A DNA stretch of 29,790 nucleotides from a virus. Taxonomy: Duplodnaviria; Caudoviricetes. Position numbers and translations under genes: made by a program. Below are positions 2,716 through 21,336 of the stretch, one piece after another. The stretch covers positions 1-29,790 of IMG/VR virus record IMGVR_UViG_3300046739_000328, one strand, 5' to 3'. The notes under the pieces are model-generated. The model was not told the DNA's origin. It ran no database searches and saw nothing but the letters and a program-made list of their open reading frames with translations. Position 1 is the stretch's first letter. Each line of letters begins with the position of its first letter.

Positions 2716-3150
2716 TTAGACGGAGCGTGCCGGCGCGCGGGGACTGCGCGCCTCCTGGAGCTCGATGATTCTGGCGAGAATTTCTTCGAGGGCCTTCCGG
2801 GTCTTGGTCATCTCGGGCGCTGATTGCAGCCGGCGCCATTGGCGGGTGCGCTCCTCTTCGAGCGGGGTCAAGCGAAGTCCGCCCGATCGGCCGGCGCGTC
2901 GCTGGGCGGGCGCCCCGTAGAGGTCTTCGATAAGCTCGGCCACATCCCCGTGGCCCGCCGCGCGGAGGAGTTTCGAGGGCGAGGTCCCCGTGACGTCCGC
3001 GATCTTGAGGCAGATCGTGGGGTCGGCGGGCTTGCCGGCCAGCAGCCGGCTGAACGTGTCGGGTCGAACGCCGATCGCTTTGGCAAACTCCGCGTGGGTG
3101 CCTCCGCGTTCGTCGGCGAGGCCGCGCAGTAATGTCCCAAAATGGCCCAT
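2716..3150 (-). CDS. XRE-family repressor-like protein (paralog B)
   Basis: EFAKAIGVRPDTFSRLL HTH; similar over most of its length to 3496-3954. Confidence 0.8.
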   Translation of the reverse strand: MGHFGTLLRGLADERGGTHAEFAKAIGVRPDTFSRLLAGKPADPTICLKIADVTGTSPSKLLRAAGHGDVAELIEDLYGAPAQRRAGRSGGLRLTPLEEERTRQWRRLQSAPEMTKTRKALEEILARIIELQEARSPRAPARSV

Positions 3151-3495: not shown

Positions 3496-3954
3496 TCATG
3501 AGGCGCCCTTCTGCCGACGGTTCGCCTCCAGGCGGCGGCGAAAGGGCGTCAGTTTTGGGACCCGTCCCTGCTTCTGGACGCTGTAGTCCACGAGCGTATA
3601 GAAGGCGCTGGCGGCCTTGGGGTCAAGGCCGCGCAGGGCCGCCACATGTTTTTGTTCGTGCGGCGTCAGTTGAATGCCGAGAAACGCCTGCCGGCGTTCA
3701 GCGGCCGGGCCATAGAGGTCTTCAATCACGTCCGCGACGTCCCCTCTGTCCGCGGCGCGCAAGATCCGTGACGCGGAGGTTCCCGTCACGGTGGCGAGCC
3801 GCAAGCACACTTCCACGCTCGGCGCGTGCGCGCCGCGGCTCGTGAGGAAATGACTCAGCGTGGACGGCGTCACGCCGATCGCTTCAGCTAGATCCTTTTT
3901 CGTCCCTCCGTACTGCGTCACGAGTTCTCCCAAGAGTTGTCGAAATTCGGTCAT
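3496..3954 (-). CDS. CI-like XRE repressor (paralog A)
   Basis: DLAEAIGVTPSTLSHFL HTH; first leftward gene of the divergent switch. Confidence 0.8.
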   Translation of the reverse strand: MTEFRQLLGELVTQYGGTKKDLAEAIGVTPSTLSHFLTSRGAHAPSVEVCLRLATVTGTSASRILRAADRGDVADVIEDLYGPAAERRQAFLGIQLTPHEQKHVAALRGLDPKAASAFYTLVDYSVQKQGRVPKLTPFRRRLEANRRQKGAS

Positions 3955-4159
3955 AGCTGCATCTGTCCTTTGCTTGTCGTGTTTCCGCCGCACTGTGGAA
4001 ACTTACAGCCTTCTTGCAAATATTGCAAGACTCAGCATTGACGATTGAGCTATCCACCGATCGCGACTTGACTTTATAGCATGTCAATTGTAGCCTTTGC
4101 GTTCTTGGCAAGTGCAATGATTGCACTTTACGCAATCACAAGACACGCGAAGGAGTCGC
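3955..4159. promoter_or_regulatory. Divergent lysis/lysogeny control region with two operators
   Basis: AT-rich intergenic region; TCTTGCAA-ATA-TTGCAAGA (4012-4030) and AAGTGCAA-TGA-TTGCACTT (4110-4128). Confidence 0.75.
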
Positions 4160-5344: not shown

Positions 5345-6094
5345 ATGAACACCAGCCTCGCCGTAGTGCCCGAGTCGCCGGCGCCGCTTGTGACGCCGGC
5401 ACAGCTCGACCTGATCAAAGCCACCGTCGCGCGCGATGCCACCGACGCCGAGCTCGCGCTCTACCTCTTCGACTGTCAGCGGCGCGGCGTGCACCCGCTC
5501 GACCGGCTGATCCACTTCACTAAGCGCGCCGGCAAGTACACGCCGATTACCTCGATCGACTTCATGCGCACGCGCGCCGCGACCACGGGCGAGTGTGCCG
5601 GTATCGAGGACGCGCAGTTTACCGACGGGCCCGAGTCGCCGGCCACGTTCCGCGCGACGGTGACGGTGTGGCGCCTGGTGCAGGGGCAGCGGTGCGCGTT
5701 CACGGCGACCGCGTGGTGGCAGGAATTTCGGCCCGAGCAGAACGACTTCATGTGGCGCCGGATGCCGCACGTGATGCTCGGGAAAGTCGCCGAGGGGCAC
5801 GCGCTGCGGAAAGGCTTTCCCCAGCAACTCGCGGGGCTCTACGCCGCTGAGGAAATGGACCAGGCGCGCGAGGACGGCGAGGCGCCGCCGCGGCCGGCCG
5901 GCAAACCCGACAAACCGATTACGGCGGCGCAGCGCAAGCGGCTGTTCGCTATCGCGAAGGACTGCGGCGTGTCAGAGGAGGCGCTGCGCGCGGCGCTCCC
6001 GCCTGGCGTCGAGAGCACCAAAGATCTCACGCAAGCGATGTACGAGGCCGTAATCACGCGGCTGCAGACGCCAGGCGCCGATGACGTCCTCTGA
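5345..6094 (+). CDS. bet: Bet/RecT-family single-strand annealing protein
   Basis: QLDLIKATVA..ATDAEL..YL..C...G.HPL and W.RMP.VMLGKVAE.HALRKGFP...GLY..EEM; AGGAGG RBS. Confidence 0.9.
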   Translation: MNTSLAVVPESPAPLVTPAQLDLIKATVARDATDAELALYLFDCQRRGVHPLDRLIHFTKRAGKYTPITSIDFMRTRAATTGECAGIEDAQFTDGPESPATFRATVTVWRLVQGQRCAFTATAWWQEFRPEQNDFMWRRMPHVMLGKVAEGHALRKGFPQQLAGLYAAEEMDQAREDGEAPPRPAGKPDKPITAAQRKRLFAIAKDCGVSEEALRAALPPGVESTKDLTQAMYEAVITRLQTPGADDVL

Positions 6095-6687: not shown

Positions 6688-6893
6688 AGCAACGCAGTCA
6701 CTGAACGATCCAATGGAGTCAATTAGCGAATCGATCGACTCAGAGGATCTAGGCACAGAGTCAGGGACCGAGTCATGGATGCAGGCAGACAGATATTCAA
6801 CGAGGGAACGAACCAAGACCACGCACGAATCGAACGAAGCAGCCGAATGACGGGAGTGATAAAGCCAAGCAATCGAACAAAGGAGCCAACAGA
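6688..6893 (+). repeat. A-phased tetramer array 1 (ANNS)n; putative guide ncRNA
   Basis: A at every 4th base, with 18 consecutive in-phase As at 6747-6815. Shorter runs on either side are separated by 1-2 nt phase slips. Confidence 0.9.
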
Positions 6894-7709
6894 ATGACGA
6901 CAAAAAAGACCGAGAGCCAGAAGGCGGACGGTGCCACCGTCACCGTCCGCTACGATTCCGAATCCATCGCCAATATGGCGCTGAAGGTCAAGGCCGAGGG
7001 CTTCGTGCCGGCCGAGGACCTCAAGGCGGAATTCGGCCCGGAGAAATTCACGCGCGGCGTTGCGGTGCTCTATCGCGATTTCCGCATGTTCCGGGAAGTG
7101 CGGCGCGCCTGGAAGGACGGCGTTGACGCGCTCGGGTATGAGTGGGCCGATCGGCGCTTCAGCAAATCCGAGGTCAAGAAGATTCCCCCGGAGCTCGGCT
7201 TCCTCGTGGACCTCGCGAGCCCCATGGCGCCGAAGTACAGCGACTTCCAGAGCGTGACGGTGAAATGCCGCTACGTCACCGCGGCGCTCGGCGGCTGTCC
7301 GGTGAAGGACACGGACGGCTCACCGATCAACGCGTTTGAGCGCGACCGCGACGGCCAGATCCAAATCCTCCGCTACAACCTGCGCGCGATGATTACGCCG
7401 GCGCTCCCGATGATCGGCAAAGAGCAGGCCCTCGCGCGCCGCATCGGGTTCAAGACGATCCGCATCGCGACCAATGGCAACCTCTCGAAGGTCGAGCGGC
7501 CCGTCAACGACCACGGCCAGGGCAAGGGGTTCTGCCGGAGCGAGAAACTCGCGGATGGCACGGACTTCACCATCGAGGCGCTGATTCCGACGTCGATTCT
7601 CTCGGTGTCGGAGTATGTGCAGGCGCTGCGGCTTGCTGGCGAGATGGTCGGCTTGTCGCCGGGCCGATCGGCCGGATTCGGCGATTTCGAGGTGATCGAG
7701 GTCGGCTAA
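6894..7709 (+). CDS. Solitary Cas7-like RAMP protein with an N-terminal extension
   Basis: RAMP motif order VTVKCRYVTAALGG / DGQIQILRYNLRAMI / EKLADGTDFTI / C-terminal glycine loop AGEMVGLSPGRSAGFGDFEV; AAGGAG RBS. Confidence 0.75.
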   Translation: MTTKKTESQKADGATVTVRYDSESIANMALKVKAEGFVPAEDLKAEFGPEKFTRGVAVLYRDFRMFREVRRAWKDGVDALGYEWADRRFSKSEVKKIPPELGFLVDLASPMAPKYSDFQSVTVKCRYVTAALGGCPVKDTDGSPINAFERDRDGQIQILRYNLRAMITPALPMIGKEQALARRIGFKTIRIATNGNLSKVERPVNDHGQGKGFCRSEKLADGTDFTIEALIPTSILSVSEYVQALRLAGEMVGLSPGRSAGFGDFEVIEVG

Positions 7710-7714
7710 ACACG

Positions 7715-8238
7715 ACCGATACAGCTAATGAATGACTGATCGAACGATCGAACGAACAGACGCACGCAGTGAACTAAGGATCGAAAGATCTAGCCAGGCA
7801 GACAGCCCAAGGATGCAGGAAATCACACAACAAATGACGGATGGACCGATCGAAAGACCAAAAGAGCGATGCAGGCCGAGTGAATTACAGAGGCAGGCTA
7901 GCGATACAGAGATGGAAAGAGACACTGACGCACGCAACGAGTCTCACGCATCGATGCACCAACTCATGGAATTAGCTAACGACGCAGCTAATCCACAGAC
8001 GGACCGATCGAGTGACAAATGGATGGAATAAGTCCCGGACCGATAAAAGCAAGGAAGGATTCACAGATCCAATCAGCTATCAATTCATGGAGACAGCGAA
8101 ACACGGACTGACCGAAGCGACGGATAGATAGACGAAAGTACGGATAGAACGAACGACCGAGGCATTGACGGAACGAAGCAGTGACGAAAGTTCAAACATG
8201 CAAGGAAAGAGGTCAAACGCCATGCAGACAATGACCGA
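7715..8238 (+). repeat. A-phased tetramer array 2 (about 500 nt); putative guide ncRNA
   Basis: In-phase A runs: 7715-7755 (11), 7756-7804 (13), 7809-7873 (17), 7900-7940 (11), 7946-7990 (12), 7995-8115 (30 of 31), 8116-8188 (19). Confidence 0.92.
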
Positions 8239-8734
8239 CCCCGCAGTTGATGCCGCCGAGAATCCCACCGCACGCACGTGGAGCGCGACGGACGCCTATG
8301 TCCGGCAGGCGCTCACGGCCATCAAACGCGGCGCGGTCACGACCGCTGACGAGCTCGTCACGTGGGATTACGAGCACGATCAGCGACTCTTCGATTGGAA
8401 CGATCTGACGGCGGCCGCCTGGGCACGTAAGGCCCAGGCGGTCTTGTTCTTCAATCGCTTCCGCGGCGTCTTCGACAAGATGCGCATCCGCGCGCTGATT
8501 CACGTCCGCGAGGACGCCGACGCGGTCCTGGCCATCGAGGCGTCGGGCTACTTTCCCGTCGAGATGATTGCCGATCATCCCGGGATGCGCGCGCAGGTCA
8601 TCAGCGATCTCGTGCGCCGCATGAAAGTGCTCGCGAGTGAACTGCGACTATGGAAGCTGACGCGCGAAGAACAGGCGGTGATGTTCCGGCAACTCGCCGA
8701 GGTGATCGATGGAACGAACGACGAGGCCGCGTAA
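8222..8734 (+). CDS. RAMP-associated hypothetical protein (F[DE]W[ND]D..AA...R..QA type)
   Basis: LFDWNDLTAAAWARKAQA...IRALIHV...GY motifs; GAGG RBS before ATG 8222; enclosed by arrays 2 and 3. Confidence 0.7.
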   Translation: MQTMTDPAVDAAENPTARTWSATDAYVRQALTAIKRGAVTTADELVTWDYEHDQRLFDWNDLTAAAWARKAQAVLFFNRFRGVFDKMRIRALIHVREDADAVLAIEASGYFPVEMIADHPGMRAQVISDLVRRMKVLASELRLWKLTREEQAVMFRQLAEVIDGTNDEAA

Positions 8735-8745
8735 CCGCGTGGCCG

Positions 8746-8826
8746 ACTGAGCGACGAAATGAAACACGCAGGAACCTATTGACCCAGAGAATCAATCAGG
8801 CAGACACAGAGCGATTGAACTAACCA
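8746..8826 (+). repeat. A-phased tetramer array 3; putative guide ncRNA
   Basis: 21 consecutive in-phase As from 8746 to 8826, the last being the A of the next ATG. Confidence 0.92.
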
Positions 8827-9380
8827 TGCTGTACGTCGACGACAAATTCCCCGAACATCCGAAGCTGTTCAAGGCCGCCGCGAAGCTCGGGCCGAACGGC
8901 GGCGCCCAGGCGCTCGCGCTCTACATGGTGGGTCTGGCGTACGCGCGGGAACACCTCACCGACGGGTTTGTCCCCATGCACCTCGTTTGTGCTTGTGGTC
9001 TCGTTCAGACACCACAAGACGTGGCGAACGTCCTCTGTTCGCGGAGCGTTCGACTGTGGCATCGGGTACCCGGCGGCTTCCTTATTCACGACTACCTCGA
9101 CTGGAACCCAAAAGCCAGTCTCATCAAAGAGAAGCGGGAAAAATGGCGCGCGAAAAAGGAGGCGCAACGGCGCGGCGGGAACGGGCAGTACCGCGGGGAG
9201 TCCCCGGGGGAGTCCCCCGGGGACGTGCGCCGAGACTCGCGCGCGCCCGTACCACGATCCAAGTACGTACTAGTACCGGGAGAGGCACGATCGGATCGTA
9301 CGGGTTCTAGTACCTTCCGTGTATTAACCGCCGCTGCGCGTCGGTTTGTACGAAAAACCGACGAAAGACAGGCCGCCTAG
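8826..9380 (+). CDS. Phage replication initiator / replisome-organiser-like protein
   Basis: VDDKFPEHPK...AYAREHLTDGFVP...IHDYLDWNP...KREKWRAKK; internal DNA repeats. Confidence 0.7.
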   Translation: MLYVDDKFPEHPKLFKAAAKLGPNGGAQALALYMVGLAYAREHLTDGFVPMHLVCACGLVQTPQDVANVLCSRSVRLWHRVPGGFLIHDYLDWNPKASLIKEKREKWRAKKEAQRRGGNGQYRGESPGESPGDVRRDSRAPVPRSKYVLVPGEARSDRTGSSTFRVLTAAARRFVRKTDERQAA

Positions 9381-9599
9381 ATGGCCCGCCTACTCACGCA
9401 TCGGATCCTCTGCGCGATGGCGAGTGAAGAGCTCGCCGCCGCTGCCGACTACACCACCTGGGCCGAGGCCGTGAAACACCGGCTGGTGCGTCAAGGCTTT
9501 CCCTATCCGCCCACCCACACGCTCACCGCGGCGCTCGCCGCCGTCGCCTACGTCACCGAGCAGAGGAGGACCGCATGGCCCGCGCAAAAAACACGATGA
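9381..9599 (+). CDS. Hypothetical protein
   Basis: Starts immediately after the upstream stop codon. Confidence 0.5.
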   Translation: MARLLTHRILCAMASEELAAAADYTTWAEAVKHRLVRQGFPYPPTHTLTAALAAVAYVTEQRRTAWPAQKTR

Positions 9600-9931
9600 C
9601 TGGTACGGTGGCTCACCGCCGTGTCCCACCGGCGAAGCCTCGCGCGGCGCCGTTGCCCGGGATGGAAGACCACGCCATCAAGCCGCTCGACGACATTGCG
9701 GCCGAGTACGCGGAGATCCGTGATGACCGGATGGCGCTGACGCAGCGCGAGCGCGCCGCGAAAACGCTCGCGCGGAAGCTGATGAAAAAATACGACAAAA
9801 CGATCTATCGGCACGATGGCATCGAGATCACGATCGTGCCTGGCGAGGACGACGTCAAGGTTCGAGTCAAGAAGCACGAGGACGACAAGGACCAGGCCGA
9901 CGGCGTCGCGTTCACCGAAGCGGAGCACTGA
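9575..9931 (+). CDS. Hypothetical protein
   Basis: GAGGAGG RBS; coding-like codon usage. Confidence 0.7.
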   Translation: MARAKNTMTGTVAHRRVPPAKPRAAPLPGMEDHAIKPLDDIAAEYAEIRDDRMALTQRERAAKTLARKLMKKYDKTIYRHDGIEITIVPGEDDVKVRVKKHEDDKDQADGVAFTEAEH

Positions 9932-10224
9932 TGCCGACGTCGTCCAACGTCCTCTGCGGGTGCGGTCGGTTCATGTCGGTGAAGAAAAACAGCGTCACCG
10001 TCGAAGAGTTGCTCGAGGATCAGTCCCCCTACAAGCTCTGGGACGCGGACTGCTACGAATGCGTCGAGTGCGGCGTCGAAGTGATCACCAGCTTCGGCAA
10101 GAGCGCCTTCGTCGAGCACTGGCAGCGCGACTACGCGACGACGCGTGCCGTCTTCGCGACGCGAGGACCCATTTACCCTGGCCGTTGCCGCGCGGTCATC
10201 GAGGCAAAGGACGAAGCGATATGA
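9931..10224 (+). CDS. Zinc-ribbon hypothetical protein
   Basis: C.CGRFM...WDADCYECVECG; TGATG coupling. Confidence 0.7.
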   Translation: MPTSSNVLCGCGRFMSVKKNSVTVEELLEDQSPYKLWDADCYECVECGVEVITSFGKSAFVEHWQRDYATTRAVFATRGPIYPGRCRAVIEAKDEAI

Positions 10225-10439
10225 GTAAACGCCGCAACGGTCTCGACCAGGCGATCGAGCGCGTCCAGGACAACATCCGCGTGCAGCAGGCGGCGCTCGT
10301 GATTCTGCTGCAGCAGCGCGGCGACGACGTGCATCCGCCGTTTCCGCAGAACAGGGAAGTGCGAGAGGGTGCGCTCCGCCGCCGGCCGCGCTCGGCCACC
10401 GTGGCGCTCGGGCCCGATGGGAGCAAGCTGCTGCCATGA
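10221..10439 (+). CDS. Hypothetical protein
   Basis: ATGA overlap; MSKRRNGLDQAIERVQ. Confidence 0.5.
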   Translation: MSKRRNGLDQAIERVQDNIRVQQAALVILLQQRGDDVHPPFPQNREVREGALRRRPRSATVALGPDGSKLLP

Positions 10440-10566
10440 CCTACCGCGAGGCCGGCTGTCGACCGTTACGCTACCGTCGCGGTGGGCGTCGGTTCTGGCG
10501 CACGTATCTGGCCGACCGCGTCCTGGCCTTTCAGCGCGCCATGTCGGCGCACACTGTCTAGCACCG

Positions 10567-17269: not shown

Positions 17270-17898
17270 CCGAGAGCGAGCGGCTCGCGAACGTGATCAG
17301 CGTGGCTGTGCGCAGCGCGACGGCGCCGCTCTGCGAACGGCTCACCGTCCTCGAAGCGCGCAGCGCCGTCCCTGGGCCCCCCGGGCCGCCTGGCGCCAGC
17401 GGCGCGGACGGGCCGCCCGGCCCCGCCGGTCCCGAAGGCACACCGGGACGCGATGGGCAGCCGGGCGTGGCCGGCCGCGATGGCGCGCCAGGCGCCCGAG
17501 GTGAGCCCGGCGAGCGGGGCGCGGATGGCGTTCACGGCCGCGACGGCACGCTCGAGACGCTGCGGGTCGAGCCGCTCGACGACCGCACGATCCGGTTCGT
17601 CCGCGCCGACGGGACCCCGGTGCCCGGCGGCGAGCGGCTCGCCTTCCCCGTGCCGCTCGACGAAGGTGTCTTCAAGCCCGACCAGAGCTACGCGCGCGGC
17701 GCCGGCGTGACGCACGCGGGGTCGTTCTGGATTGCCCAACGGGCGACACACGGGGCGCAGGAGCGACCGGGCGACGGCTCCGGGGCCTGGCGCCTGGCCG
17801 TCAAGGCGGGCCGCCAGGGGGCCGAGGGGAAGGCCGGGCCGGCCGGTCCGCGCGGGCCGGCGGGTGAGCCTGGGCCGCCCGGAAGGACGTACGCGTGA
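17266..17898 (+). CDS. Collagen-like (Gly-X-Y) virion protein
   Basis: Two GXY tracts flanking Y.RG.GVTH.GSFWIA...PG.GS.AW.LAVK.GR.G. Confidence 0.85.
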   Translation: MTESERLANVISVAVRSATAPLCERLTVLEARSAVPGPPGPPGASGADGPPGPAGPEGTPGRDGQPGVAGRDGAPGARGEPGERGADGVHGRDGTLETLRVEPLDDRTIRFVRADGTPVPGGERLAFPVPLDEGVFKPDQSYARGAGVTHAGSFWIAQRATHGAQERPGDGSGAWRLAVKAGRQGAEGKAGPAGPRGPAGEPGPPGRTYA

Positions 17899-18515
17899 GG
17901 CCCTCCGTGCCGCGTCTGTGGCCGGGCGCAACGATCGTCTGCCTCGGCGGCGGGCCGAGCCTCACGCTCGATGACGTCACGGCGGTCCGCGGCCGTGCGC
18001 GGGTGATCGCCATCAACGACGCCTACCGGCTCGCGCCCTGGGCCGACATCCTCTACGCGTGTGACCAGCAGTGGTGGAGCTGGCACGCCGGCGTGCCGTC
18101 GTTTCCCGGCCCGAAGTACGGCCTCGCCGGGTCGATTCCGATCACCTGGCCCGACGTCCAGGTCCTCGAGAACACCGGCTGGACGGGGCTCGAGCTCGCG
18201 CCGACGGGGCTGCGCGCCGGCCACAACAGCGGCTACCAGGCGGTCAACCTCGCCGTGCATCTCGGCGCCGCGCGCGTGTTGCTGCTCGGCTACGACTTGG
18301 GGCCCGACGGCGACCGGACGCACTGGTTCGGCGAGCATCCGAGCCTGGTGCCGTCGCCCTACGCGGAGATGCGCGCGGCCTTCGAGACCATCGTCGCGCC
18401 GCTCGCAGAGATTGGCGTCGAGGTGCTGAACTGTTCGCGGCGCACGGTGCTGACGGCGTTCCCGTGTGTGGCGCTCGAGGACGCGCTCGCGGTCGCGACG
18501 GAGCGGGTCGCATGA
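17895..18515 (+). CDS. DUF115/MAF-like (sialyltransferase-type fold) putative glycosyltransferase
   Basis: IVCLGGGPSL, IAIND, NSGYQAVNLA.HLGA.RVLLLGYD, VLNCS. Confidence 0.75.
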   Translation: MRPSVPRLWPGATIVCLGGGPSLTLDDVTAVRGRARVIAINDAYRLAPWADILYACDQQWWSWHAGVPSFPGPKYGLAGSIPITWPDVQVLENTGWTGLELAPTGLRAGHNSGYQAVNLAVHLGAARVLLLGYDLGPDGDRTHWFGEHPSLVPSPYAEMRAAFETIVAPLAEIGVEVLNCSRRTVLTAFPCVALEDALAVATERVA

Positions 18516-19423
18516 CGCGCGTCTTCGGCGTCGACTACCAGTTTCTCTCGTGCGGCGACGTGTTCACCGAGGGGCTCGCGCACGCCGCGGCGGATCTCGG
18601 CCTCGCCTACGCGCACGCCGACTGGGCGGCGCCCGACCTCGCGTTCCAGATCGAGACCTTCGCGCCCGATCTCATCTTCGTCGTCCACGGCCGCCGCTTC
18701 GCGCAGCGGTTCTACAACCTCAAGGGCTTCGGCGTGCCGACGGCCGTGTGGCTCCTCGACGAGCCCTACGAGGTCGACGACACCGCGGCCTGGTCGTCGC
18801 GTTTTGACCACGTGTTCGTGAATGACGTCGCGACGCTCGACCGCCACCCGCGCGCCGCGCGGCTGCCGGTCTGCTACGACCCGCACGTGCACCAGCCGGC
18901 CGGCCTCGAGCGGCCGTTCCGCGTCGGCTTCATCGGCGGCGGCAACCCGACCCGCGACGCCGTGCTCGGCGCGCTCGCCCGTGCCGGCCTCCTCGACTAC
19001 GTCGTGGGCGGCGCGTGGGACGACCCGGACGTGGCGCGGCGCTGCGTGAGCCCGGGCATCATCGCGTGCGAGACGGCGCGCTACTACCAGAGCACGCGGA
19101 TCGTGGTGAACGTCTTCCGCGATCGGCACCACTTCAACCGCAACGCGATCCCCGCGACCGCGATGAACCCGCGCATCTATGAGGCGCTGGCCTGCGGCGC
19201 GCTGGTCGTCAGCGAATGGCGCCCCGAGCTCGCCCGGGTGCCGGACCTGCCGACCTTCGATCGTCCGGCTGAGTGTGTCGCCCTGGTGCGCACCCTGCTC
19301 GCGGCCGAGGCCGACGAGGTCGAGCGCCTGCGCGGGCGCTGCGCGGTGGCGCTCGCCGACGACACCTACGCGGCGCGGCTCCAGACCGTGCTGACGGTCA
19401 TGCGCGCCGAGGTGGCGGCATGA
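18512..19423 (+). CDS. CgeB-like GT-B glycosyltransferase
   Basis: AVWLLDEPY, VGFIG, RIVVN, NPRIYEALACG, TYAAR. Confidence 0.85.
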   Translation: MTRVFGVDYQFLSCGDVFTEGLAHAAADLGLAYAHADWAAPDLAFQIETFAPDLIFVVHGRRFAQRFYNLKGFGVPTAVWLLDEPYEVDDTAAWSSRFDHVFVNDVATLDRHPRAARLPVCYDPHVHQPAGLERPFRVGFIGGGNPTRDAVLGALARAGLLDYVVGGAWDDPDVARRCVSPGIIACETARYYQSTRIVVNVFRDRHHFNRNAIPATAMNPRIYEALACGALVVSEWRPELARVPDLPTFDRPAECVALVRTLLAAEADEVERLRGRCAVALADDTYAARLQTVLTVMRAEVAA

Positions 19424-20046
19424 CGCCCCGCGTCACCATCGTGACGACGGTCTACGACCGCATGGACTGCCTCGCGCGGTGTCTGCGGGCGACCAAGCAG
19501 AGCACGTGCGCCGATCACGAGCAGCTCGTCGTGTCCGACGCGCCGGGCCCGGCGATCGAAGACCGCATCGACGCGATCGTCGCCGGCCTCGACGACCCGC
19601 GGGTGCGCCATCTGCGCCGGTCGGACCGCGCGAACGACTGGGGCATGAGCCCGGCCTTCGACGGGCTGCGGGCCGCGGCGGGCGAGTTCGTCTGCTTTCT
19701 CTCCGACGACAACGCGTATCTGCCCAACCATTTTTCACCGCTCGTCGACGCGCTCGACCGCGACCCCGATCTCGGCTTCGTCTACGCCTCCTGCCAGTAC
19801 GCCGCGTTCCGCGAGCTCCGCACGGCGCCGCCGGCCGGGTCGCAGATCGATCTCGGCCAGCCGCTCTTCCGCACGACCGTCCTGCGCACCGCGTTCCCGC
19901 ACGGGTTTCCGTTCCAGGAATTTGCGTGGGACTGGCGCGTGATTCACGTGCTGTTGCTGCTCGGCGTGCGCTGGCAGCACATCGACACGGCGTCGTTCAT
20001 CTTCCGCCTGGCCGCGTACCCCGAGCACCTCGAGGCGCTCCGATGA
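19420..20046 (+). CDS. GT2-family glycosyltransferase
   Basis: VTIVTTVYDR, LVVSD, GEFVCFLSDDN, DW. Confidence 0.9.
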   Translation: MTPRVTIVTTVYDRMDCLARCLRATKQSTCADHEQLVVSDAPGPAIEDRIDAIVAGLDDPRVRHLRRSDRANDWGMSPAFDGLRAAAGEFVCFLSDDNAYLPNHFSPLVDALDRDPDLGFVYASCQYAAFRELRTAPPAGSQIDLGQPLFRTTVLRTAFPHGFPFQEFAWDWRVIHVLLLLGVRWQHIDTASFIFRLAAYPEHLEALR

Positions 20047-20771
20047 CGACGCTGCATGTCTGCGCGATCGTCCGCGACGAAGGGCTGTATCTCGCGGAGT
20101 GGCTGACGCACTACCGCACGCAGGGCGTCACGCGCTTCTGGCTCTACGACAACGAGTCGACCGATGGCGGGCTCGACGGCCTCGGCATCGACGTGGTGGT
20201 CGAGCCGTGGCCCGGCCGCGGCGTCCAGCTCGCCGCCTATCGGCACGGGCTGCTGCGGGGCGCGGCGGACTGGCTGGCGTTTCTCGACGTCGACGAGTTT
20301 CTCTATCACCCCGACGGCCGGCGCGTCCTCGATGTCCTGGCGGCGCAGCCGCCGGCGGTCGACGCGGTCTGGGCGCCGTGGCGCATGTTCGGCTACGGCG
20401 GGCACCTGACCCGCCCGGCGGGCTCCGTGGTGCAGGCGTTCCGTACCCGCGCGGCCGACGACCATCCGCATCACGCCTACGCGCATGGCGGCAAGTCGAT
20501 CGCGCGCCCGTCGCAGGTGCGGGCCTTCCTGGACCCGCATCATCTGCGCCTGGCCAACGGCGACAGCCATCGCGTCAACGACAGCGGGCTGCTGGTGAAT
20601 CACTACGTGACGAAGAGTCGCGACGAGGCGCTCGTCAAGATCCAGCGGCCGCGCATCGACACCGGGTGGTATCGCGCCTGGCCAGAGGTGGACGGCGACG
20701 CGCAGACCTATGGGGCGGTCCGTGACGACCGCCTCGCGCAGCTCACCGCGGGAGTCCTCCATGCGTCCTGA
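20043..20771 (+). CDS. GT92/GT2-like (GT-A) glycosyltransferase
   Basis: CAIVRDEGLYLAEWL.HY, YDNESTD, WLAFLDVDEF, KSI, NHY.TKS. Confidence 0.88.
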   Translation: MTTLHVCAIVRDEGLYLAEWLTHYRTQGVTRFWLYDNESTDGGLDGLGIDVVVEPWPGRGVQLAAYRHGLLRGAADWLAFLDVDEFLYHPDGRRVLDVLAAQPPAVDAVWAPWRMFGYGGHLTRPAGSVVQAFRTRAADDHPHHAYAHGGKSIARPSQVRAFLDPHHLRLANGDSHRVNDSGLLVNHYVTKSRDEALVKIQRPRIDTGWYRAWPEVDGDAQTYGAVRDDRLAQLTAGVLHAS

Positions 20772-21336
20772 GCTGCAGGACCTCCCGGCCGGCTGGTTTC
20801 ATCACGGCGAGAAGATTCTCGCCCTGGTCGAGGCGCACCGGCCGCGCGTCTGCGTCGAGCTCGGGACGCACAAGGGGGCGTCGGCGATCGGGCTGACGCG
20901 GCTCCTGCGTACGTGGGGCGGGCACCTGGTCTGCGTCGACAGCTGGAACCCCGTCTTTTCCGGTGAGTCCGGCGTGCTCGCCATGTGCGCGGCGAACCTG
21001 CAGGCCGCCGGCGTCGCGCCGTGGGTGCGCCTCATCCTGGCCACGACGGCCGAGGCCGCGGCGGCGTGGCGGGACGGGCCGATCGATTACCTCTACATCG
21101 ATGCCGACCACTCGCGCGAGGGCTGCGCCGCCGACCTGGCGGCCTGGTGGCCGCACGTGCGGGAGGGCGGCCTGGTCGCCGGCGACGACTACGACAACCC
21201 GGACAGCCCGGGGGTCGCGGAGGCCTGGGACACCTTCGAACGCACGCACGGGCAGACCTTCGAGCGGTTCGCGACGCCGAACACGGCGCCGCTCGGGATG
21301 CGGCTGGTCTACGGGACGAAGCGGAGTGCGGCATGA
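20761..21336 (+). CDS. Class I SAM-dependent methyltransferase (Methyltransf_24-like)
   Basis: VELGTHKGAS, CVDSW, IDYLYIDADH, GGLVAGDDY. Confidence 0.9.
   Translation: MRPELQDLPAGWFHHGEKILALVEAHRPRVCVELGTHKGASAIGLTRLLRTWGGHLVCVDSWNPVFSGESGVLAMCAANLQAAGVAPWVRLILATTAEAAAAWRDGPIDYLYIDADHSREGCAADLAAWWPHVREGGLVAGDDYDNPDSPGVAEAWDTFERTHGQTFERFATPNTAPLGMRLVYGTKRSAA

Follow-up and report, generated by a model that had tools for sequence, protein, structure and literature searches.

A phage cassette with 4-nt periodic arrays around a RAMP-like gene as a candidate VIPR-like RNA-guided system

TIGR-Tas systems are phage-associated and show multi-guide arrays with an 18-nt period and a non-RAMP effector. 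The Cas7/Csm3 backbones of class 1 CRISPR systems flip bases periodically, which is also stated in the accessible text of the VIPR papers. All VIPR types described in that text are pentanucleotide (GGY/NN), with the variants NNNGG, YNNNG and NNNNG (10.64898/2026.04.26.720920), and VIPR is described there as binding dsDNA on either strand (10.64898/2026.04.26.720920, 2026.04.26.720927). In the accessible part of a genome-language-model survey, the main periods are 5, 18 and 60-79 nt, and 7, 8 and 10 are mentioned for some of the others; 66 clusters lie outside its three bands and the VIPR variants that it names are 5-mers only (10.64898/2026.10.21.760802). A search of the openly accessible literature text found no 4-nt system; one may be described in figures, bioRxiv supplements or subscription journals. 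Here we analyze a phage cassette with arrays of 4-nt units, a decodable and apparently undescribed 4-letter array system. With good confidence, we read the arrays as guide RNAs of a VIPR-like system that the phage encodes, with 4-nt repeats, and that would silence competing satellites and phages, likely an RNA-guided weapon against rival viruses.

Cassette layout and array grammar

The window (the whole stretch of 29,790 nucleotides of viral DNA that was analyzed) belongs to a temperate soil phage with 67% GC, in which integrase, RecT and replication initiator were called by Pfam/PHROGs and packaging genes were read from the ORF list. The window also shows three tandem repressor-like ORFs, all on the minus strand (2049-2678, 2716-3150 and 3496-3993), the first of which encodes an HTH fused to a ClpX-type C4 zinc finger, and, at 17895-21336, between head and tail genes, an ORF cluster which by eye, on the ORF list, resembles glycosyltransferases and a methyltransferase.

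Period-4 A runs are confined to about 6688-8826, where an array, the 271-aa RAMP gene, a second array, the accessory gene, a third array and the replication gene follow each other (Table 1). The earlier note had placed the main array correctly and overlooked the two flanking arrays, which share its grammar. The period-4 register continues through the ribosome binding site to the start codon of every downstream gene (6868-6893, 8194-8238 and 8806-8826); therefore, the arrays also serve as 5' leaders.

Table 1. Features of the period-4 cassette (positions in the window)
Feature	Coordinates	Strand	Remarks
Upstream period-4 array, 49 units	6688..6888	+	Reaches into the RBS of the RAMP gene
271-aa RAMP gene, likely effector	6894..7709	+	Predicted fold
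Main period-4 array, 127 units A-N1-N2-N3	7715..8238	+	Overlaps the accessory gene's RBS and start with its last units
Decoded integrase guide, 16 units, sense	7879..7943	+	Spans the +1 slip at 7899; matches more weakly as far as 7861
Module common to relative L024, 7 units	7946..7974	+	14/14 N1N2 identical; no target found
Accessory gene, about 167-170 aa, start 8222 or 8231	8222..8734	+	Distant homolog of the accessory gene in 5-nt VIPR-like loci
Downstream period-4 array, 21 in-phase A's	8746..8826	+	Stops at the ATG of the replication initiator

In the main array, A opens 126 of the 127 units, and the information per unit position is 1.93, 0.01, 0.06 and 0.40 bits. The first position is thus fixed and positions 2 and 3 are free, which agrees with the invariant A every 4 nt that had been claimed from the letters alone. 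In-phase A runs of 11, 14, 17, 11, 12, 11+20 and 19 units, at 7715-8188, essentially reproduce the earlier hand counts; a C substitution at 8035 divides the 11+20 run. Eight runs have at least 8 units, and 5000 base shuffles of the same stretch gave at most 2. Over 1842 units, positions 2-3 carry 0.00-0.03 bits and A is kept at 97%. Position 4 leans to G and C (G 68, C 38, T 11, A 10) and is therefore biased rather than free, a bias absent from the earlier note. Contig pieces overlapping the array from six of eight other runs show zero differing letters, which excludes an assembly artefact.

No direct-repeat unit was found: TRF reported a single 18-nt fragment and a repeat search only irregularly spaced look-alikes of 65-80%. 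An Rfam scan of the array matched no family and its RNA folding does not go beyond shuffles (z 0.53), so that the array RNA is predicted to be unstructured. Furthermore, no conserved structured 3' tail, ribozyme or processing signal was found, and the arrays abut coding sequence. The proposal of a multi-guide array that has no direct repeats and escapes repeat finders is supported. The exclusion of a decayed microsatellite was upheld by the positional information together with the failure of TRF to find the array. The assertion that period 4 is incompatible with codon structure was wrong, since the units are codon-sized and codon-like once the A is dropped.

The RAMP gene, the accessory gene and related loci

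The 271-aa protein was modeled by AlphaFold2 with a pLDDT of 91. The best Foldseek matches of the model are Cas7-11, type VII Cas7 and Csm3, with E values of about 2e-7 and TMq of 0.37-0.44, and a viral RAMP is also matched. No sequence match was found in Pfam, PHROG or PDB. The C-terminal RAMP/Cas7-like domain has a glycine-rich loop, and residues 22-108, approximately, are predicted to form an N-terminal winged-helix-like part, according to the topology read from the model. On the basis of this predicted fold, the protein is likely the effector of the system. It has 111 close homologs, and profile searches gave 147 clusters at E<=0.001 and 26 at 1e-30; only 1 of the 44 profile homologs tested reached the Pfam RAMP cut-off. 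The distant homologs (P0253-P0370) fall in size classes of 150-200, 250-300 and 340-440 aa, almost all without Pfam match, and their flanks may carry other periods.

Removal of three duplicates from 28 fetched loci and addition of the window gave 26 distinct loci. Arrays flank the RAMP gene in 25 of them, the sole miss being a short fragment. These loci contain 54 arrays, with 66 phase slips of +1, 30 of +2, nine of -1 and six of +3. Comparison with these phages showed that modules vary as units, as the earlier note had predicted: two modules which adjoin at 7900-7990 in the window occupy separate arrays in the relative L024, where the module at 7946-7974 is found in a different array.

The accessory gene is present in 19 other distinct loci. 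It matches phrog_15946 with an E value of 1.2e-4, members of its family reach 6e-9, and a gene of a 5-nt locus matches the same group at 5e-26. In addition, an HMM of the accessory family matches the accessory genes of L261 and L265 (2e-4 and 1.5e-3), although direct BLASTP was not significant. The L261 and L265 accessory genes adjoin RAMP-like genes and period-5 tracts. Such tracts with RAMP-like genes were found in three related phages, L261 (about 8700-10500), L264 (11206-13110) and L265 (3940-6000), and the 5-nt loci occupy the slot of the window cassette, between RecT and the replication gene. Alignment of the RAMP with that of one 5-nt locus by hhalign was weak (E 0.0018, probability 15%), and a second 5-nt-locus RAMP showed no link. 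For both genes of the L265 locus, some 25 mycobacteriophages contain homologs that are annotated as hypothetical.

Codon-like units, candidate targets and rival readings

After removal of the A, the triplets are codon-like both in a sense and in an antisense register, and position 4 takes the wobble place in each. This was analyzed in 92 segments of at least nine units, with seven marked for exclusion as duplicates or in-gene runs. The codon log-likelihood was 220, against 97±22 when position 4 alone was shuffled, and none of 300 shuffles reached 220. Stops in both registers were found in three of the 92 segments (11.3±2.6 expected), and 3 of 58 TA units force a stop (13.8±3.2 expected). One A-N1-N2-N3 unit stands for one triplet of the target, and N3 falls on the wobble of the codon, a two-bases-plus-one rule.

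Four motif scans of IMG/VR were made. Three gave seed matches only, without extension; the other succeeded, and one of its two matches is in frame within a tyrosine integrase. The integrase guide of the main array matches the L149 integrase at 32 of 32 N1N2 positions, 14 of them beyond the seed, in the catalytic-motif region of a tyrosine integrase found in satellite-like Acidobacteriota elements. It scores 17-32 across 10 family loci. As the guide had served to find this family in the first place, its score there is not a blind draw; L369, which came from a capsid search made independently of the guide, is blind and scores 27.5. By PHROGs, L149 and L369 each combine integrase, primase and capsid genes, and the ORFs scanned include no tail gene; both elements are therefore considered satellite-like. 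The integrase relatives are located in Acidobacteriota/Vicinamibacterales genomes, which suggests a host of this group for the phage.

All 54 arrays were also scanned, on both strands, against 6.7 million and 1.15 million letters. As nulls on the larger set, one shuffle scored at most 17 and a 4-nt step at most 18; on the smaller one, the maxima were 18 for three shuffles and 17.5 for three other rules. Target steps of 2, 4 and 5 gave no score above 18. A guide of L021 matches codons 2-22 of a satellite portal gene (34/42, score 22, antisense), and a guide of L024 matches the same integrase as the window guide (21/22, score 19.5). A guide of L007 matches a prohead-protease-like gene (22/24, score 19) and one of L006 scores 19 on L346, within no recognisable gene; scores of 19-19.5 barely exceed the null maximum of 18. 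The matched genes, which come from other samples, are candidate targets that would be homologs of the actual ones. The best score of the window arrays against their own genome is 13.5, and no self match was thus found. When the system's own loci and 80 terminase neighbourhoods were scanned, matches were not in excess of those of shuffles. In the main array, 16 of the 127 units, perhaps 20, have a target.

In the upstream array, 6747-6794 is compatible with a Bet/RecT motif of other phages in 11 of 12 residues, in sense orientation, in the best of 120 Bet homologs; the score is 9.5, against 4-5 in two shuffles, at the protein level only. Positions 8790-8821 fit eight residues of a phage nuclease-like protein, within the null range. 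Weaker in-frame matches, also within the null range and considered as leads only, concern terminases, a second integrase, RecT/Bet and one serine-recombinase family. Different motifs of this last family (L201, L202, L346) are fitted by three guides from different loci (L003 1838-1885, L013 about 5810-5850, and L014 about 2150-2178 / L016 4767-4802), each within the null range. The guide at 5921-5964 of the relative L010 fits the window RecT (5345-6094) in frame and antisense, with a null-range score of 17; targeting among phages that carry the system is possible on this match.

Our tentative reading, which we hold at slightly less than even confidence, is that a guide repeats the target sequence and adds an A after each triplet, the triplets being either read contiguously (3 bp and one flipped A) or kept with the third base as a relic. 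The contiguous version taken by itself, in which N1, N2 and N3 all pair with an unbroken target, A alone is flipped out, each protomer covers 3 bp and N3 is the most mismatch-tolerant base, is possible and somewhat less probable; it would imply the same biology with a code unlike that of VIPR. In 11 guide-target pairs, four strong and seven picked by us from null-range scores for being in frame in phage genes, position 4 equals the third base of the target in 60 of 104 N1N2-matched units (33.7 expected if independent, 44.9 from codon usage) and leaves the encoded amino acid unchanged in 37 of the 46 split codon boxes (22.2 expected), and the G excess at position 4 would fit G-T wobble pairing. 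However, position 4 lies on the wobble in both orientations, like the base skipped by VIPR, homologous guides disagree there in 6 of 18 units, the count for positions 2-3 being 1 of 36, and a G in one unit of the window guide corresponds to a His codon that ends in C or T in the targets. Position 4 tracks the third base of the target and yet changes more quickly from one homologous guide to another; thus it either pairs weakly or is left over from copying and does not pair. Strict N1-N2 pairing with weak or optional N3 pairing is favoured. On either version of the A-inserted reading, the arrays would retain every base of the target codons, which would indicate that guides are written from a template. 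A related question is where guides end. The main array shows +1 slips near 7756, 7808, 7899, 7991 and 8116, +2 slips at 7877-78, 7944-45 and 8192-93, and two more +2 slips within its last 30 nt. That each slip-bounded segment is one guide, as the earlier note had proposed, is unlikely as a rule. It agrees with the integrase match, which stops right at the 2-nt slip 7944-45, the place at which the module kept elsewhere by L024 starts, and the perfect part of which begins after the slip at 7877-78; furthermore, the L024 match ends at a slip and the Bet match starts at one. However, four matched guides contain five +1 slips: the window integrase match passes over that at 7899, L021 passes one, L007 two, and the homologous integrase guide of L024 has its own at another place in the same target region. 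Slip-to-slip lengths range from 1 to 36 units, 35 of the 66 +1 slips look like a single added A, the Bet match stops within an in-phase stretch, and partial matching persists upstream of 7877 in L156 and L369, which makes the 7877-78 boundary uncertain. Thus, slips are probably tolerated bulges in most cases and junctions in some: the one-base slips likely are bulges within guides of roughly 11-21 units, which would abut with a slip at some junctions only.

Targeting of RNA, either mRNA or nascent transcripts, as in the Csm3/Cas7-11 relatives, is quite improbable. The nearest solved folds are type III and VII Cas7 subunits, and the antisense register is the commoner one, best in 51 of the 92 segments against 18 for sense, with similarly skewed nulls; however, the best match, that of the integrase, and the Bet match are sense and these guides could not pair with mRNA, and dsDNA is what published VIPR binds. 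Far less credible still is a decayed tetranucleotide microsatellite, or a DNA-level protein-binding lattice, without guide function. Genuine period-4 microsatellites occur in the related phages L089, L115, L264 and L265, and most array units have no assigned target; however, the near absence of information at positions 2-3 next to the retained A, the restriction of the arrays to the cassette, the 32/32 match to a host-appropriate integrase and the codon-consistent position 4 are not what repeat decay yields.

For the guide RNA reading that we prefer, VIPR structures and the predicted fold suggest the following mechanism. The array RNA of the + strand would be co-transcribed and RAMP protomers would polymerise along it, one per 4-nt unit, each holding the invariant A and presenting N1N2(N3) to the dsDNA of competing satellites and phages. 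Transcription of satellite or phage integrase and packaging genes would be blocked, and these elements silenced. DNA rather than RNA targeting is inferred from the presence of both sense and antisense matches, and repression rather than cutting would be expected because no nuclease domain was seen.

Comparison with known systems

The 4-nt unit means that the footprint and code of a RAMP can change while the locus plan and the prey stay constant. Because position 4 retains a trace of the third base of the target, the way in which non-contiguous guides are written from the target becomes testable, and the denser code, with one scaffold base per unit, is relevant to programmable DNA targeting.

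A microsatellite has a consensus unit with identity decaying at all positions, which is not the pattern found here. As in TIGR-Tas, the arrays are phage-associated and multi-guide; here they have period 4 and a RAMP instead of an 18-nt period and a non-RAMP effector. The predicted RAMP fold with a G-rich loop and the proposed periodic base flipping are shared with the Cas7/Csm3 backbones of class 1 CRISPR systems; in contrast to these, there is no direct repeat-spacer array, the window contains no other cas genes and the period is 4, not 6.

The closest likeness is to VIPR as described in the accessible text of its reports (2026.04.26.720920, 2026.04.26.720927, 2026.10.15.759431), in the phage-encoded pair of a single RAMP gene and one accessory gene, with periodic non-coding tracts on its flanks. 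The window likewise shows a single RAMP-fold gene with a G-loop outside a CRISPR locus, in a minimal phage locus of RAMP, accessory gene and long intergenic tracts, the kinship of the accessory gene being drawn via the 5-nt-locus genes. Two specifying bases per unit, a 3-nt target step and a third base on the wobble were found computationally, and the matches, with few guides assigned, lie in satellites and prophages, on one strand or the other, with recombinases among them and none in self. Unlike the 5-nt units of VIPR (GGY/NN, NNNGG, YNNNG, NNNNG and GAC/NN-type), the unit here has 4 nt with one fixed A and no period-5 tract lies at the gene. The guide holds a base at the register that VIPR skips, and this base tracks the target. 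Some VIPR types have a conserved structured 3' tail or ribozyme, unlike the arrays studied here, and the RAMP has 271 aa with an extra N-terminal winged-helix-like part, against about 20 kDa for published Vipr. Although VIPR-like in working, the system is not filed as a VIPR member because it is not pentanucleotide, and there is a fair chance that its pairing code is distinct from that of VIPR. If guides are A-inserted copies of their targets, this would be a third RAMP guide code, between the 2-of-5 code of VIPR and the 5-of-6 code of class 1 CRISPR.
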